Shown one piece after another: positions 8,126-22,682 of a stretch of DNA of 33,556 nucleotides (positions are counted from its first letter, which is position 1; each line of letters starts with the position of its first letter). This DNA is from a virus (taxonomy: Duplodnaviria > Caudoviricetes), in the IMG/VR virus record IMGVR_UViG_3300012948_000012, positions 1-33,556 of that record; one strand, written 5' to 3'. The notes under the pieces were generated by a model, which did not search any database, was not told where the DNA came from, and saw nothing but the letters and a program-made list of their open reading frames with translations. The translations under genes and the position numbers were made by a program.

Positions 8126-8325
8126 TGGATCGTTATCAAGAACTGAAAGAGTATGTCAAAGATTATCTTGAACATATGGATGAACTTAACGAAAAAAAGA
8201 TAGCTTGCAATGAGAAAGAACTAGAGTTTCTAAGAAAAGAAAGCGTGTGTTTTAACCTGTTGCAAAAAAATTTTTTAAGGATGGAGGCTGAAGATGTTAT
8301 ACCCGAAGATCAACAGTCTCTATAA
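8125..8325 (+). CDS. Hypothetical coiled-coil protein
   Basis: TAATG coupling, GAGG RBS; MDRYQELKEYVKD... Confidence 0.6.
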   Translation: MDRYQELKEYVKDYLEHMDELNEKKIACNEKELEFLRKESVCFNLLQKNFLRMEAEDVIPEDQQSL

Positions 8326-8989
8326 GAGACACGGATGGTACTTTGATGAAAAAGACAAGAAGAATACTTCTTCTGAGCTACAAAAGAACAGACAGTCATT
8401 TATCATAGGGGACTATGCTTGTCCTGAGTTTGAATCTATTAATAGATGGCAAATTGATGAAAAGATTGATGGGACAAATATCCGTGTAATTTGAGAACCT
8501 TGGGCAGAAAATCCTGTTACGTTTGGTGGGAGGACACCTAATGCTCAAATTCCTACAGGGTTATTACTGCATCTTCAAAAGACTTTCACAAGAGCTCAGC
8601 TATTTAAGCATTTTCCCGTATGCCATAGGGTTGTATTTTTTGGAGAAGGTTATGGGCCTAAGATTCAAGCAGTAGGATCTAAATATCGAAACGATGTTTC
8701 TTTTATTCTCTTCGATGTTTGGATTGATGGATGGTGGCTAGAAAAAGACACAGTAAAGTCCATTGCTGATGATCTAGAAATAGAACATACTATTGGCGGA
8801 GATATCTTAAGTACTCAAGAAGTTGTTGACTTTGTTAAGTCTAAACCCATTAGCTACAGCTCTGTTGATCGCTCCTTAGTCATGGAAGGAGTGATCGCCC
8901 GATCTTATCCCCTTATGATGTTTAGACAGCGTGGAGCGCCTATAATGTTCAAACTGAAAGTCAAGGATTTTCCAGAATGCAACGTATAG
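8294..8989 (+). CDS. ATP-dependent RNA ligase, Rnl2-like, 231 aa (TGA=Trp at 8492)
   Basis: Nucleotidyltransferase motifs YPKI, EKIDGTN, FGEGYG, FILFDV, EGVIAR and KLK all in one frame once TGA is read through. Confidence 0.85.
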
Positions 8990-9435
8990 TCTTATCCGGT
9001 GATCCTGTTGCCCAAGCGAGAGCTAGGATATTTAGACGGGGCAATCGAGTTATGACTTTTGACCCTCAAGCAAGTTTAAAACGCGAGCTAAAGATACAAG
9101 CCAAGCTACAATTAAAGAATTGAGTGATGCCTAAGTATCCGAGGGTTTCTTTTAGATTCTACATGCCTATACCCAAAAGTATGAAGAAAGAAGAACGCAA
9201 GTTGGCTAATGATGGCTTTTTGAAACATGTCAAGAAGCCTGATGTGGATAACTTGATTAAGTTGTATCTAGATGTTCTTTCTGGTATCGCTTTTGAAGAT
9301 GATAATTGCGTCTCGTTAGGTTCAGCAATCAAGATCTATAGCCTTATGCCTAAAACTGTTATCACTATTTGTGAGCATGATAAGTTAATATCCATGAATG
9401 AAATATGGAGTGTCACTGAAGACACTCCATTTTAG
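8977..9435 (+). CDS. rusA: RusA-like Holliday junction resolvase (TGA=Trp at 9121)
   Basis: GDPVAQARAR N-terminus joined in frame to KPDVDNLIK...D...EDDNCV. Confidence 0.88.
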
Positions 9436-10114
9436 TCACTTTAGGATAATTATTATAGACCCTTCCTATTGCTGCATGGGTCCATAAGTCGGATGTTCTA
9501 GGTTTGATTCCGCGGCTATTCATCTCGCTTGCAATGTCACGTAATGACATGCGCTTGCGTTTACGCATATTATACATAATACGTAAAGCTTCAGCTTCGT
9601 AATCGTCTATCAATAATTGCTTATTAACGACTTTGAAGCCATACGGAACATGTCCCACCCGTTCACCCTTGGCTCGCTTGGCAGCTAGAGCTTTTTTGGT
9701 TCGTTGTCTAATACGATATCTTTCATATTGTGCAAAGCCTCGTATTAGTGTCGTCATCAGAGCGGCTACTCCTGGGTCCATCCCTGAATAATCTTCCATG
9801 ACGCTAATAAGCATACATCCTTTCTTTTCTATCTCATATTGAAGGATAGCAGCTTCCATGACGTCACGACTTAGGCGGTCATGGTTAGCAACTAAAAGAG
9901 TATCACCTTTTTGTAAAGCGTCTAATGCTTCATTAAGCTGATCTCTCTCTTCCATTCGTAAGCCAGAGCTGACTGCCTCATCTTTGTAGACAACGTAGTC
10001 AGCTTGACCTTTTTTTGTTAGATAATCGAGACAGGTTTGTAATTGGGCTTGTATACCTAGACCAGATTTCTTTTGTTCTTCTGTAGAAACGCGCAAATAG
10101 ATTATGTATCGCAT
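9413..10114 (-). CDS. Serine recombinase (resolvase domain plus recombinase domain); apparently ends at TGA
   Basis: YLRVST, DRLSR, FAQYER, GHVPYGF, IASEMNSRGI...W. Confidence 0.9.
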   Translation of the reverse strand: MRYIIYLRVSTEEQKKSGLGIQAQLQTCLDYLTKKGQADYVVYKDEAVSSGLRMEERDQLNEALDALQKGDTLLVANHDRLSRDVMEAAILQYEIEKKGCMLISVMEDYSGMDPGVAALMTTLIRGFAQYERYRIRQRTKKALAAKRAKGERVGHVPYGFKVVNKQLLIDDYEAEALRIMYNMRKRKRMSLRDIASEMNSRGIKPRTSDLWTHAAIGRVYNNYPKVTKMECLQ

Positions 10115-10115
10115 A

Positions 10116-10334
10116 TCAAGAGAAATGTATAGGACAATCCAATACAGTTTGTTGTCTTACGTCTACAGTAAATCCAACGGTCCTTAGGTTTTCTAAGTCT
10201 TTTTTTGAAAAATTCTTCTTTTTCATCAACATCGCCATGTCTACTCCTACCTTATTAACAGGTCGAAACAAGGGACGAGTTATGAATGGGAAATATTCTA
10301 CCTCAACGGTTGGGTAAGCAATCTTATGTTCCAT
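10116..10334 (-). CDS. Hypothetical protein; ends at TGA 1 nt before the recombinase ATG
   Basis: AAGGA RBS; track ORF. Confidence 0.65.
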   Translation of the reverse strand: MEHKIAYPTVEVEYFPFITRPLFRPVNKVGVDMAMLMKKKNFSKKDLENLRTVGFTVDVRQQTVLDCPIHFS

Positions 10335-13535: not shown

Positions 13536-13823
13536 ATGCAAGATTTAGCCATACAATTTTTAAAAGATATAAACATAGCCCAATTGCTCGCGATAGGGAT
13601 TATGTTTTGGTTTTTCTATAGTCGTTTGGATAAAAAAATAGAGAAATTAGAAAATCGAATGGATAAGCTAGAAAATAAAATATCTTCGTTAGAAATGCGA
13701 GTTGGAAATATAGAAACTCGGGTTGCTGTTATGGAAAGCCAGTTAAGAACTATTAATGAAAATGTATCTCATTTAATGTGGCATCATCAATTTATAAGAG
13801 ATAAAGATGCAGATGAGCAATGA
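13536..13823 (+). CDS. Single-TM plus coiled-coil protein; extends to 13895 if TGA is read
   Basis: Hydrophobic segment LLAIGIMFWFFY then heptads LDKKIEKLENRMDKLENKI. Confidence 0.8.
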   Translation: MQDLAIQFLKDINIAQLLAIGIMFWFFYSRLDKKIEKLENRMDKLENKISSLEMRVGNIETRVAVMESQLRTINENVSHLMWHHQFIRDKDADEQ

Positions 13824-13913: not shown

Positions 13914-14120
13914 ATGGATAAAATTGATATAATCTTATCGGTTGTAAGTGGTGGCTTCAGTTTGATGTTGGTCATGTGGCATTTTATAAATCGTAGAATA
14001 GAAAGACTATCAGACAAAGTAGATGACATTGACAAAAGACTATGCGGCATAGAAGGTTCTTTAGCAACTCAAGGACATTGTCTCTTTCATAATATAAAAG
14101 AAGATCGCAAAATAGAATGA
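13914..14120 (+). CDS. Single-TM plus coiled-coil protein (ATGA overlap with next gene)
   Basis: ILSVVSGGFSLMLVMW then IERLSDKVDDIDKRLCGIE. Confidence 0.75.
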   Translation: MDKIDIILSVVSGGFSLMLVMWHFINRRIERLSDKVDDIDKRLCGIEGSLATQGHCLFHNIKEDRKIE

Positions 14121-16536: not shown

Positions 16537-16613
16537 TGCAACAGTGGTAGATGGGACAGGTTCTAGTGTGCAATTCCGCTAGAGTCCGAGGGTTCGAATC
16601 CCTCATGTTGCAA
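16537..16613 (+). ncRNA. Degenerate tRNA-like element (identity unclear)
   Basis: Acceptor-like TGCAACA/TGTTGCA and perfect T-arm GAGGG-TTCGAAT-CCCTC, but poor D-arm and a 7-bp stem with 8-nt loop in place of the anticodon arm. Confidence 0.5.
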
Positions 16614-16648
16614 GGTCCGGTTTCCGGTTACGTCAGCAGGAACCGGTT

Positions 16649-16684
16649 GGGGTGATGTGTAAAAAGCATCAACCCCCTTTTTTT
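16649..16684 (+). terminator. Intrinsic terminator directly upstream of tRNA-Trp
   Basis: GGGGTGATG...CATCAACCCC hairpin followed by T7. Confidence 0.7.
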
Positions 16685-16758
16685 ATCGGCTAAGAACTCA
16701 AATGGTGCGAGTAGCGTCTCCAAAACGCTTGTAGGGGGTTCGATTCCCTCAGCCGGTG
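16685..16758 (+). tRNA. trnW: tRNA-Trp(CCA), atypical geometry, no encoded CCA end
   Basis: Acceptor ATCGGCT/AGCCGGT with A1-U72 and G73; D-stem ACTC/GAGT; anticodon loop CT-CCA-AA; T-arm GGGGG-TTCGATT-CCCTC. Confidence 0.8.
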
Positions 16759-17193: not shown

Positions 17194-18372
17194 CTAATCC
17201 TTATAGGGATCTATTTCGTTTTTAGAGGCCATAGCAACGCCTAAAGGCTTTAAACGATGTACAACCTTGACTGTATCGCGATGAGCATTTAAAACGATTT
17301 CTATGCGTTTATAACAATGGGGCGATTCATCTACATCGCCACCTCGAAGTTCTACATTAAACTTTTGCAGCCAAGCTTGCATATCTTCCTTGCGGACTTC
17401 CCCAGGCTTAATGATCTGTCCAGTCTTTCTATGTATCTTCCCTTTTGCTTGAGAGCGTCCCATGATGCGGCCAGCCCCATGAATGGTTGAGTACATAGCA
17501 GCTTTATTTTCTTCTGATTCCACTCCCTCAAGGATGTAACTAAAGTCTCCCATTGAGCCACCAACGAAACTTTGTAAGCCAGGATTGTTAGGTGTTGCTC
17601 CCTTTCGGACAACCCACACCAGCTCGTCATCGTGAGATTCTTTCCAAGCAAAATTGTGATGGTTATGCACCTCTTGTAGGATTTCGGCCTTGAGGATTCT
17701 AGCCATGCGACTACAAACCCAATCACGTCCAGCGTAGGCGTAACGACCTGCGAGATCCATGCACTTAAGATATTGTTCACCCAGGTCTGAATTCTCGTGC
17801 AGCACGACAGGTTCAGCATGTATTCCATCTTTTCCCCCAGCTTGTTTTATGAAATGCGTCGCTATGGTATGTCCCAAACCACGGCTACCAAAATGGACAC
17901 CCACCCAAATATGATCAAAATCATCGACGAAAATATCAACGTAATGGTTGCCAGATCCGACGGTTCCCAGTTGGTTATAAGCTTTTGATTTGAGATCGCG
18001 CAGAATATCAATACTATCCCAAATAGGGTCATCAAAAATCGGATGATCAACTCTTTCATTGTTATTTCTCCCAACGCCAAAACTGATGTATTTCTGAACA
18101 TCATTCATTAAGCGATAAATATCTTGTCGAACATGGTCAGCATCGGCAGATACACGCACAGCTTTATTACCGCATCCTATATCGAAACCTACGCCATTCA
18201 CGCAGATATGATCTTTGTATGATACTACGGAGCCTATTGGAACACTATAACCTATGTGATGGTCAGCCATGAGAACACCCTTTTGGGCTTTATATTCCAT
18301 AGCCTTAGCCAGTTGATTAACTGATTCCATGTCTGGTTCTCCCCAAACAAGAATATCGCCTATAGGTTGCAT
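17194..18372 (-). CDS. rtcB: RtcB RNA-splicing/repair ligase
   Basis: MADHHIGY, VGFDIGCG, LGTVGSGNHY, HFGSRG, HNHHN, RKGATP, GSMG, HGAGR, DESPHCYK. Confidence 0.97.
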   Translation of the reverse strand: MQPIGDILVWGEPDMESVNQLAKAMEYKAQKGVLMADHHIGYSVPIGSVVSYKDHICVNGVGFDIGCGNKAVRVSADADHVRQDIYRLMNDVQKYISFGVGRNNNERVDHPIFDDPIWDSIDILRDLKSKAYNQLGTVGSGNHYVDIFVDDFDHIWVGVHFGSRGLGHTIATHFIKQAGGKDGIHAEPVVLHENSDLGEQYLKCMDLAGRYAYAGRDWVCSRMARILKAEILQEVHNHHNFAWKESHDDELVWVVRKGATPNNPGLQSFVGGSMGDFSYILEGVESEENKAAMYSTIHGAGRIMGRSQAKGKIHRKTGQIIKPGEVRKEDMQAWLQKFNVELRGGDVDESPHCYKRIEIVLNAHRDTVKVVHRLKPLGVAMASKNEIDPYKD

Positions 18373-18729: not shown

Positions 18730-18919
18730 GAACTGCGAAAACTGCGGTACATTCGATGACCTGGAGTATTATGAGCATGTCTTTAAAGGGATCACTTTAT
18801 GTGGAGACTGTGCGGATTTACCTATGTCAAAAGTATCTAAGTACGGTCAGCCTTGAGTCATTGTAGATGATGAATATTATCCTAGGGATATTAAGTCATG
18901 CAAGAATCTGAAGCACTAG
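18701..18919 (+). CDS. Small zinc-finger protein (TGA=Trp at 18854)
   Basis: KNCENCGT...LCGDCAD; read-through fills the gap up to TerL. Confidence 0.55.
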
Positions 18920-20385
18920 AATTTCTTAGTGATAAAATCTGAAGGCTATCTAACCTTTATTATATCAAGGATAAGAGCGGCAACAAGGTTCTCTTTAAGC
19001 CTAACTGGGCACAGATACAACTACTTAAGCCTCATTATCTTAATATAATTCTGAAAGCTAGACAACTTGGAGTGACTACGTTTCATGCTTTGTTATTCTT
19101 GGATACATGTCTATTCAACAGCAACGTCAACGCTGCTATCATTGCAGACAATAAGCCTAATGCTAAGGAGATCTTCATAGACAAAGTTAAGTTTGCCTAC
19201 GATAACTTACCTGAGGAAATAAAAGTGATGATCCCAGCAAGAAAAGATAATGTCAATGAAATGAGGTTTGAGAATGGGTCGGTCTTTCGAGTGGGTACAA
19301 GTCTTAGATCGGGAACATTACAGCTCTTGCACGTCACCGAATTCGCAAAGATCTGTGTGGAAAACCCAAGGAAAGCAAATGAAATTACATCAGGCGCTCT
19401 GAATACCTTACAATCAGGTCAATTCTGTTGCATTGAATCTACTGCAAGGGGTCGTGGTGGAGCATTCTATGAAATGTGCAAAAAGGCTATGGACCAACAG
19501 GATTCAGGTTCTCTCCTAAGTAAACTGGATTGAAAGTTCTGGTTCTTCCCTTGGTGGAAGGAACCTAGTTATTCTATAGATCCTGAACATATCGTGATAA
19601 CCAAAGAAGAGTCTGAATACTTTGAAAAGATAGAATCTGAATGTAACATGGTTCTCGCCGAGGGTCAGAAAGCTTGGTATGTAAAAAAATCAGAAACTCA
19701 AGGTGAATACATGATGCGTGAATACCCTAGTACACCTGAAGAGTCATTCATGAGTGCTAACGAGGGATTGTATTGGGGCCAGCAGATGGCTAGAGCTAGA
19801 ACAGAAAGGCGAATATGCCATGTTCCATATGATGAGCATGCAATGACTTATAGTAGCTGGGATATAGGTATCGGAGACAGTACAGCCATCTGGGTATTTC
19901 AGCTTGTTGGAAACGAGATTCACTTCTTGAATTATTATGAGAACTCGGATGAATCGCTTCCACATTATGTTAACTGAATCAAAAAGCTACCTTATACGTT
20001 TGAAAAACACTTCATGCCTCATGATGCTGCTTCTAGGGATAAAGCTACTGGTAGGTCATACGCAGATGTCGCTAGAAATCTTGGTTTGAAAATCGACATT
20101 GTCCCTATAGATCAGAATGAGATGTTTGGTATAGAGGCTGTCAGGAATGCTTTTCCTAGATTTTGGTTTGATCAATCTAAGTGTGATAAGGGTATTAAAG
20201 CCATTGATTCCTTCAAGAAAGAGTGGAATGAAAAGCTTGGGTGTTACAGAGAGAAATCTCTACACGATTGGGCTTCTCATGGAGCTAAGGCATTAATATA
20301 TGGAACTGAAGCTATACAACGAATGACCAAAGGTAAAGGTCTAACAGCTGAAGAATGGAAACATTTACGGAGAACAATGATTTAA
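18898..20385 (+). CDS. terL: Terminase large subunit, 495 aa (TGA=Trp at 18940, 19531, 19975)
   Basis: DKI-W-RLSNLY, ILKARQLGVTT, LHVTEFA, IESTA, WDIGIGDST, PHDA, HDWASH; three track ORFs lie in one frame. Confidence 0.95.
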
Positions 20386-20654: not shown

Positions 20655-22682
20655 ATGACATACCTTCCGCAAAGTAACGATAAAGTTTTCCAATTCAATC
20701 AATTCTTCTTTGATGCCTATAGAACGTGGGGTAATTATTATGCTGCTGCGTATAGGGATCTAAGATCTTATTCAGGTGATAACTGATCCCAGGTCGAGAA
20801 GACTGCTCTAATACAACAAAAGAGAATGGTTCTTGAGCTGAATAAGATTAGACGTGTTGTCAATCTATATTCAGGGTATGAAAGAGAGAATCGTCTTAGT
20901 ACAGTTGTAGCCCCTATTGAAGATTCTGACGAAGAAACAGCAGATCTCTTTAGTGATGTCATGCTGTATGTCTATGATAAAGGCGATGCTCATCATATGA
21001 TTTCTGATGCCTTTGAGCATAGTCTAAAGACAGGTTTAGCTATTATTGGTATCTACATAGACTATTCGAAAGACAAAGTGAATGGTGATATCAAGTTTTA
21101 TTGGAAACCATTCAATGCCTTGATGCTTGATCCTTATTTTACTAAGAGAGACTTAAGTGACTGCGATCAGGCTAGCACTAGAGATTTGTTATCGCGTGAA
21201 CAGGTTAAAGCTTTGTTGCCTTGGGTTGACCCGAATGAAATTGATAATATCCCAACGGGCATCAGAGATAACAAATATCAATATTTAGGAATTTATCGTC
21301 AGTACAACAGTACATATATAGCCAAGAATCTTTTGACATATGACCAGTATTGGGTAAGAGTTAACAAGCCTCAGAAATATCTTGTAGACTTAGAAACAGG
21401 TGTAACGCAAGAATGAAATGGCTCTAAGGATGAAGAGAAATCAATTCTAGAAGTCATTAGAAACAATGAAAATATCCAGTTAATCAATTCATATAAGAGA
21501 ACCATCGAGCTTAATATTATCGTTGGTGGACGCCTACTATATAGTGGGCCTGATCCTACAGGATTAGATACCTTTCCTTTTGTTCCAATCATTGCTTACT
21601 TCGAACCACTTCTTGACACGATAGAGCTTAAGATTCAGGGCATAGTCAGGTCTATTGTCGATGCTCAAAAGCAATACAATAGAAGACATTCTCAAATCAT
21701 AGATATCATGGAATCTGTCATCAACACAGGATGGGTATCTAAGAATGGTGCGGTGCTAGATCCCACTATGTTGCTACAAAGTGGTCAAGCAAGAAACATT
21801 ATAGTTAATGATGGATTCGATGTACAAGCAGATATCAGAGAAATCAATGCCCCACAAGTTCCACAAGGTTATCTCCAATACCAAGATATCATCGACAAGA
21901 ACATCATGGAGATACCAGGGGGATCAGAAGAACTACTGGGTCTATCATCGACTGGTGATTCCCAAGTATCCGGACGACTCGCTGAAATACGAGCGTCTAA
22001 CGGCCTGAAAGGTAACAGAGGCTTGTTCGACAATCTTGAGTTGTCATTAAAGCTTCTAGGAAACCTAGTACTTCAAGCCATTCAACTTAATTTCACACCT
22101 GGAAAAGTCTGAAGAATCACTAAAAGAGATCCAACACCTGAGTTTTTCTCAGGAGAGTTTGGGCAATACGATTGTGTAATCAAGCAAGCTGTACTCACGC
22201 AAACCCAGAAGGCTGCTTACTATTATCAACTCTTACAGCTTAGAGAACTGGGTATAGCCATTCCAGATGATGAGATCGTCGATGCGGCTCCATTACAAGG
22301 AAAGATACGCCTTAGGGCCAGAATGCAAGCTATAGCTGAGCAACAAGCACAGGCTGCTCAAATAGCAATGGAAACTGAGCAACGTCAAGCAGAACTTGAG
22401 CTTAGTCAGATCGAAAACAATCTAGCTCTAGCACAAGAACGTAGAGCAAGAACGATTGCTGATATAGGTCTAGCGAAAGAGAGAGAATCTGAAGTCACAC
22501 AAAACAATGCCAAAGCTCTACTTGATAATGCCAAAACGTACGCTGAAATCGAACAGTTGGATCGTGATCACTTCTTAGAAACATTACGTTTTGCACATGA
22601 GATCAAACAGGTCGAGCAACAAGAAGCCGATGTGCAAATACAAAAAGATATTAACCAATCTGAACAGCTTAAACAGCACTAA
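20655..22682 (+). CDS. Portal protein, P22-like, 675 aa (TGA=Trp at 20784, 21414, 22110)
   Basis: YSGDN-W, LNKIRRVVN, DLSDC, FPFVP, GIVRSIVDAQKQYN, Gln-rich helical C-terminus; single frame. Confidence 0.9.

Follow-up and report, generated by a model that had tools for sequence, protein, structure and literature searches.

A conserved tRNA-Trp(CCA) of unusual build accompanies UGA recoding in a small clade of tailed phages and is a candidate near-cognate UGA decoder

We describe a phage tRNA-Trp gene with a CCA anticodon that, by sequence comparison, is real, conserved and tied to the reading of TGA as tryptophan within a small clade; that the tRNA decodes UGA is a prediction. The interpretation that we favour, at slightly better than an even chance, is that a reshaped tRNA-Trp(CCA) serves as a phage-encoded near-cognate UGA decoder in a chlamydial host that probably uses the standard code. 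The analysed stretch of DNA, here called the window, is an entire linear phage contig of 33,556 bp (G000), about 83% complete, with genes for terminase, a P22-like portal, capsid, RtcB, a second RNA ligase and a serine recombinase (Table 1). Judged against the complete recoded relative G001, what the window lacks probably comprises the tail genes and the remainder of a gene for a very large virion protein. Many of the small window genes match no known family. Near-identical pieces of the window were found in one soil metagenome run (X2), and no RNA dataset was among the sequencing runs listed as containing such pieces. The phage family is large, comprising tailed phages of ~40 kb (467 terminase matches in viral and 276 in metagenome sequences, and 527 capsid homologs), and we found no description of it in the literature searched; it probably infects Chlamydiales. 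Among GenBank phages, terminase identity to the window is at most 44%, and the tRNA has no full-length match.

Table 1. Window features considered in the text, with positions counted from the first base of the window.
Feature	Position	Strand	Basis or remark
Atypical tRNA-Trp(CCA), 74 nt to G73	16685..16758	+	Sequence, fold, cmscan, homolog alignment, covariation; anticodon 16720-16722
Second tRNA-like gene, 8-10-nt anticodon loop with GCA	16537..16613	+	ARAGORN default, cmscan 24.4 bits, fold
Two hairpins between the tRNA genes	16617..16684	+	Fold, z -1.9
RtcB RNA ligase	17194..18372	-	Pfam PF01139; codon counts
Terminase large subunit	18898..20385	+	3 in-frame TGA at conserved Trp positions
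P22-like portal	20655..22682	+	3 in-frame TGA
Serine recombinase	9413..10114	-	Pfam PF00239; TGA end near the end of homologs
72-aa gene	10116..10334	-	TGA end one base before the recombinase ATG

The genes of the window are broken up under translation table 11 and whole under table 4. When 50 window ORFs were searched against loci L001-L023, the homolog columns aligned to window TGA codons held W in 165 of 211 cases, 158 of them encoded by TGG, so that TGA, judged from these alignments, is shown to be read as Trp in the window. Within homolog-covered spans we counted 28 TGA and 99 TGG, about a fifth of Trp codons thus being TGA. G001 is complete (41,313 bp, with terminal repeats) and has 8 TGA in its terminase. 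Terminase searches supplied 23 loci, to which the 80 best of 467 viral matches and the 80 best of 276 from metagenomes were added; with recoding defined as two or more TGA at Trp sites and clustering at 97% identity, five of 101 clusters were recoded, namely the window (including L252, its own contig), L001, L014, G001 and L244. The fragments L001 and L014 are short and reach no further than 1.7 kb upstream of the terminase, less than the tRNA distance in the others. All five recoded rows fall within a single clade of 13 rows, where the other eight are standard-code and interspersed with them, and at 78-85% terminase identity standard-code phages are found in the midst of recoded ones; this pattern needs two changes, and a single origin is also possible. 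Searches with TGA-specific portal and capsid patterns returned only recoded contigs that were already known.

Sense TGA codons showed no enrichment in late genes (p = 0.20 and 1.0), and their unevenness across genes gave p = 0.65 in the window and p = 0.004 in G001. In RtcB, TGA accounts for none of 7 Trp codons in the window and none of 20 in the three recoded genomes together, a pattern noticed post hoc; the gene is also present in all five complete standard-code relatives, and an RtcB search against plasmids gave no clue to the host. Two RNA ligases are thus encoded by a phage of ~40 kb, RtcB, which adjoins the tRNA genes, and a PF09414 ligase at 8294-8989. A comparison of the +4 base after sense TGA and TGG (p = 0.052) was not used.

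The tRNA-Trp gene carries the CCA anticodon, rather than UCA, that a preliminary description had read from the sequence, as do 4/4 homologs, and no letters other than CCA occur at the anticodon locus among the contigs compared. Its acceptor stem has 7 bp (16685-91/16751-57) with A1-U72 and G73 and no encoded CCA end. A linker of 4 nt (AAGA) joins acceptor and D-stem, with A8, so that U8 is absent; a 4-bp D-stem (ACTC/GAGT) closes a 9-nt D-loop, 5 nt separate the D-stem from the 7-nt anticodon loop CTCCAAA, and the T-arm is normal. The odd geometry that had been pointed out (5-nt spacing, AAGA linker, no U8) was in this way confirmed throughout. The gene is not, as had been stated, the only recognisable tRNA in the window, since ARAGORN at default settings calls the second tRNA-like gene; it misses tRNA-Trp at those settings and finds it at relaxed thresholds only. 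Against the tRNA model RF00005, cmscan gave 28.9 bits (E = 0.034; gathering score 29). The cloverleaf, the 7-bp acceptor, the 7-nt anticodon loop, the TTCRA T-arm and the D-loop GG of that model are present, and its gathering score, U8, 2-nt linker and unpaired nucleotide 26 are not attained. A CCA anticodon and G73 are identity elements of tRNA-Trp, and both occur in all four homologs.

The odd tRNA-Trp is present in the window, in the recoded G001 and L244 and in the standard-code G003; the three homologs are 68-76% identical to the window gene, and all four are 57-76% identical to one another. Covariation across related phages, which had been proposed as a check, was found: in this small set (n = 4), with the structure taken from the window's own fold, both sides change in 14 of 21 pairs and 96% of cells pair, a level reached by 0/500 shuffles. 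The stems are thus kept by compensatory change, which argues that the gene is under selection as a tRNA and is not a decaying copy. As for the claim that A1-U72 and G73 are kept, both are found in the window and G73 in 4/4 homologs, but A1-U72 is found in only 2/4, the other two having G-C.

Four anticodon-stem pairs form in 4/4 homologs, and the position above them is A-U in the window, G.A in G001, U.U in L244 and G-C in G003 (paired in 2/4). G.A is the usual 26.44 pair, and to judge from the alignment a 26.44-type pair on top of a 4-bp stem, together with a variable loop of 5 nt, would suit the pattern. On the earlier alternative of a missing nt 26 or a 4-bp stem, the homologs fit the 26.44-type pair over 4 bp, and the predicted fold of the window can form the top A-U pair, giving 5 bp and no unpaired nt 26. 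Likewise, the anticodon arm described as shortened does show the 5-nt spacing, but the D-loop GG lies as far from the anticodon loop as in ordinary Trp tRNAs (e.g. L342), so that the D-stem appears to be displaced by one register in the direction of the anticodon and the arm as a whole is not shorter. One U-A/G-C change supports the shifted register; a second D-stem register is equally stable or more so in G001 and L244.

The distance from the acceptor to the D-loop GG is 12 nt in the three recoded phages and 10 nt in G003, whose sibling tRNA has 72 nt and two of four D-stem pairs that do not form. A covariance model of the four tRNAs found no further copy among 153 sources, the complete standard-code genomes G006-G009 included, and the 74-nt form occurs in the three recoded phages only (153 sources by model; 46 Trp(CCA)-like viral genes). 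An exact 19-nt tRNA search of viral contigs gave 0 matches, and a pattern search of bacterial genomes found this tRNA shape at none of at least 120 loci (about a third of the collection). L034, a pattern match, was rejected as a relative, since this phage is unrelated (no terminase match) and its short D-arm is of a different kind. We also rejected tRNA-Sec (RF01852), the best model for L244 (34.0 bits) and G001 (30.9 bits), as both scores are below its threshold of 47, the anticodon is CCA and the variable loop has 4-5 nt.

Upstream of tRNA-Trp, the second tRNA-like gene is probably degenerate; its enlarged anticodon loop has no counterpart among the tRNAs listed for G001 and L244. The relative L017, too, has several tRNAs whose loops are abnormal. 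In G001, a UCU-anticodon tRNA whose variable arm is long (L168:2362-2453, +; a Leu/Ser-like body with an Arg anticodon) lies five bases before tRNA-Trp, and its acceptor ends resemble those of the second tRNA-like gene of the window. A degenerate tRNA-like gene in G003 (L170:5953-6021, +) is called Trp(TCA) by ARAGORN at relaxed threshold only and has A33, a G.G closing pair, no cloverleaf fold and no RF00005 match. The second of the two window hairpins (16649-16676), followed by seven T directly 5' of tRNA-Trp, is terminator-like, and the element at 16649-16684 could time tRNA-Trp expression. A terminator scan did not flag the hairpins, the element is absent before the tRNA-Trp of G001, L244 and G003, and a promoter scan gave no matches above chance.

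The premise that UGA is read as Trp without a UCA tRNA holds in both the window and the complete recoded G001, and the proposed search for a UCA tRNA or a release factor found neither in the two. None of the five tRNA matches in G001 is UCA, and pattern and unfiltered model searches, hidden and two-armed forms included, found no UCA tRNA of full tRNA shape in the window, G001 or L244. The RF-1, TrpRS/TyrRS and deaminase (PF00383) families were found in 0/5 phage genomes searched, with positive controls. The genes common to the window and G001 and absent from other family loci are a J-domain gene, a DUF3846 gene and one small gene. The J-domain gene was rejected as a recoding marker: among the first 23 of 80 loci only G001 is recoded, the tRNA is present at 0/13 J-domain loci searched, and close homologs occur in unrecoded contigs (e.g. 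L449, with 35 TGG and 0 TGA).

Co-occurrence was counted across the 46 terminase clusters that extend 5 kb or more upstream of the terminase. A tRNA-Trp(CCA) occurred in 3/3 recoded and 2/43 standard-code clusters (Fisher p = 0.0007), and with 6.5 kb upstream in 2/2 and 2/38 (p = 0.008), p-values that overstate independence since all recoded phages lie in one clade; inside the 13-row clade the tRNA is present in 3/3 recoded and 1/4 standard-code rows (p = 0.14). The link between tRNA and recoding is thus suggestive, not independent proof. The two standard-code carriers are L310, whose gene is unrelated and degenerate, and G003. The latter is complete, with 0 TGA against 156 TGG in 47 genes; its share of TGA stops (6/47 genes) is like those of G006 (8/62) and G007 (7/60), so that there is no sign that the G003 tRNA reads UGA.

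A control pattern demanding G after the D-loop GGU, which favours odd D-arms, matched 113 viral loci, and 46 distinct Trp(CCA)-like genes were drawn from 80 loci with long flanks and four family loci. No U8 was present in 42/46, many of which had short, shifted D-arms. The U8-less tRNA-Trp(CCA) genes of other phages share with the window tRNA A8, the G after the D-loop GGU, a shifted D-stem, CCA and G73, but mostly have 6-10 nt from the acceptor to the D-loop GG rather than 12. A terminase, portal or PolA match was obtained in 20/49 control records searched (of 53 candidates), with internal stops in 0/20, whereas the positive control G001 did show them. An odd tRNA shape alone does not mean recoding. 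The earlier proposal that a structurally distorted near-cognate tRNA lies behind the recoding accordingly keeps the co-occurrence in its favour, and has against it the distorted 72-nt sibling in standard-code G003 and the U8-less genes of unrecoded phages. Coding coverage under code 4 against code 15 on tRNA flanks proved too noisy (known recoded loci 0.00-0.19), and L343, which looked recoded, has genes that end in TGA. Viral contigs L333-L445 hold a widespread class of tRNA-Trp(CCA) with A8, a 1-nt linker, a 4-5-bp D-stem and a tiny loop, in apparently standard-code phages; we found no description of this class in the literature searched.

UGA seems to be retained as a stop in part of these genomes. 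In the leftward operon (J-domain gene to recombinase) of the window and G001, 7/16 genes end in TGA, two of them in ATGA overlaps with the next start, and read-through at these stops would add 4-64 residues. TGA makes up 0/27 Trp codons there and 73/239 elsewhere (p = 0.00015), a test that is partly circular because the operon genes were delimited at the first stop. The recombinase ortholog of G001 likewise has a TGA end; homologs of the 72-aa gene in G006 and G007 have a TGA stop at the same place, and in G001 the end of its ortholog overlaps the start of the recombinase as ATGA. Two ATGA overlaps of G001 (+1171 and +12497) were rejected as stops, both being conserved Trp sites; since the ATGA list has chance cases, only those of the leftward operon were counted. 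Keeping TGA as a stop in one operon would call for a decoder supplied by the phage. Two window genes at 13536-13823 and 13914-14120 (+), of membrane/coiled-coil type with weak holin/spanin matches, have apparent TGA ends. A standard-code homolog of the latter has a TGA stop at the same place, and dual UGA use may extend past the leftward operon.

Clues to the host come mostly from names. A capsid homolog of 78% identity is named in a Ca. Rhabdochlamydia MAG. G001 encodes S20 (L167:17949-18221, -; TIGR00029, E = 4e-22), and none was seen in the window; 2/15 matches to this S20 carry an organism name, both Chlamydiales. Defects in S20 raise nonsense read-through. A terminase search of bacterial genomes gave 17 pattern matches, none of them a relative, and thus no prophage or host link. 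None of the table-4 lineages in the available text of PMC13695967 is chlamydial, and the abstract of PMC13462651 has no chlamydial table-4 lineage. From names only, together with the TGA stops, the host is likely a standard-code chlamydia.

Near-cognate UGA decoding is known in cells; in the literature searched, outside which most subscription papers lie, we found no phage reading UGA with a CCA tRNA and no tRNA of this architecture. According to the available text of PMC13092985, a tRNA-Trp(CCA) whose anticodon stem has 4 bp is found in Blastocrithidia nonstop, Condylostoma magnum, Ca. Zinderia insecticola and bacterium XS4, and raises UGA read-through ~2.5-fold in E. coli. These tRNAs share with ours CCA in a 7-nt loop and four firm pairs, above which the top pair is weak or open there and may be so here, and their systems share with the window and G001 a genome in which UGA is Trp without tRNA-UCA. 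They differ in that a point change unpins their top pair while the body is otherwise canonical and UGA is reassigned genome-wide in cells, whereas the window tRNA is phage-borne, has one pair missing between D-stem and loop, no U8 and a 4-nt linker, and its phage apparently still uses UGA as a stop in one operon. The likeness to Blastocrithidia drawn in the preliminary description is loose; here the core appears re-registered, and there a mismatch unpins the top pair. The main text of PMC13092985 names phages in one reference title only, and its supplement may list chlamydial or prophage-borne tRNAs. The E. coli Hirsh (G24A) and A9C suppressors also have D-arm or hinge changes outside the anticodon, proposed to allow C.A on UGA (PMC13092985, available text), but are laboratory point mutants, whereas the window tRNA keeps G24 (D-stem numbering) and has its hinge rebuilt by length changes.

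Code-4 phages with a suppressor tRNA(UCA), such as the Agate and Jade clades (available texts of bioRxiv 10.1101/2021.08.26.457843 and PMC12636597), resemble ours in reading TGA as Trp, in having close standard-code relatives and in a phage tRNA as the likely switch. In both, the recombinase or integrase is without in-frame stops and ended by the recoded codon, as the available bioRxiv text describes for integrases of phages on standard-code hosts. Unlike them, the window phages have no UCA anticodon, RF1 or TrpRS, are not from the gut set and are probably phages of Chlamydiales. In that same text, where 'CCA' is absent, TGA suppressors are given for 35% of code-4 phages only, and noncanonical tRNAs are guessed for the rest.

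Under the interpretation that we favour, the leftward operon would be translated with UGA as stop before tRNA-Trp builds up. The tRNA would be transcribed from the rightward region upstream of the terminase and charged by host TrpRS via CCA and G73; the CCA anticodon is the main TrpRS identity element and is kept if the anticodon stays CCA. C34 would pair with the A of UGA. The hinge would be loosened by displacement of the D-stem by one register, a 4-bp stem below the 26.44-type pair, the lack of U8 and two extra linker bases, and UGA would be accepted because of this loosening, as in the Hirsh, A9C and 4-bp-stem tRNAs. Reading of UGA would then open the recombination, packaging and virion genes. 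In G001 up to 8 read-throughs are required for terminase of full length, which means that RF2 would have to be outcompeted or lowered; a gain of ~2.5-fold is far below the need of 3-8 UGA per essential gene, so that RF2 must lose out too. The prfB frameshift site holds a UGA, and its mechanism controls RF2 synthesis; in-frame reading of this UGA is a possible route by which less RF2 would be made.

The tRNA could instead be a passenger, nuclease-evading or supplementary, with UGA read otherwise, for example through a phage protein that blocks RF2 while host tRNA-Trp reads through. Odd Trp(CCA) genes are indeed common in unrecoded phages, G003 carries a sibling without recoding, the window has many small genes of no known family, and efficient recoding requires lowered RF2 anyway; RtcB and a second RNA ligase suggest a conflict over tRNA damage (an idea from the available text of PMC10264068). 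We nevertheless regard this account as unlikely, given that the 74-nt form is confined to recoded phages, that few genes are specific to the window and G001, and that close J-domain homologs occur in unrecoded contigs. Quite unlikely, too, is an undescribed code-4 host lineage (tRNA-UCA, no RF2) to whose code the phage has drifted, with tRNA-Trp(CCA) supplementing UGG decoding. Such a host would suit the spread of TGA over recombination and structural genes without late bias, and 4-64 extra residues at TGA 'stops' might be tolerated, but it sits poorly with TGA ending 7/16 leftward-operon genes in two recoded genomes, two as ATGA overlaps, and with standard-code phages interspersed at 78-85% terminase identity. 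It would also leave the 3/3 tRNA match unexplained, and no chlamydial table-4 lineage appears in the available text of PMC13695967 or the abstract of PMC13462651. Very improbable, finally, is decoding only once editing or modification lets C34 read A, with the odd core as the enzyme's signal. This would account for high efficiency, but part of the TrpRS identity would be lost and the PF00383 deaminase is in 0/5 phage genomes searched; in the available text of PMC13092985, C-to-U editing yields a UGA reader in kinetoplastid mitochondria, with none seen in bacterial 4-bp-stem tRNAs.

A wider claim, which we hold tentatively and at somewhat under an even chance, is that tailed phages of environmental chlamydiae switch the host code by one tRNA-Trp(CCA) of new architecture, overlooked or misfiled by default finders, that the two linker bases make it a UGA reader, and that it explains part of the 65% of code-4 phages without a UCA suppressor. 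The phage family offers a natural comparison, with three 74-nt tRNAs in recoded phages and one 72-nt sibling in an unrecoded phage. Should the long form read UGA, near-cognate decoding would reach viruses as well as cells, and to the Hirsh change and the unpinned top pair a third structural route would be added. It would be a natural UGA suppressor that retains synthetase identity, and would mean code switching in phages of obligate intracellular bacteria.
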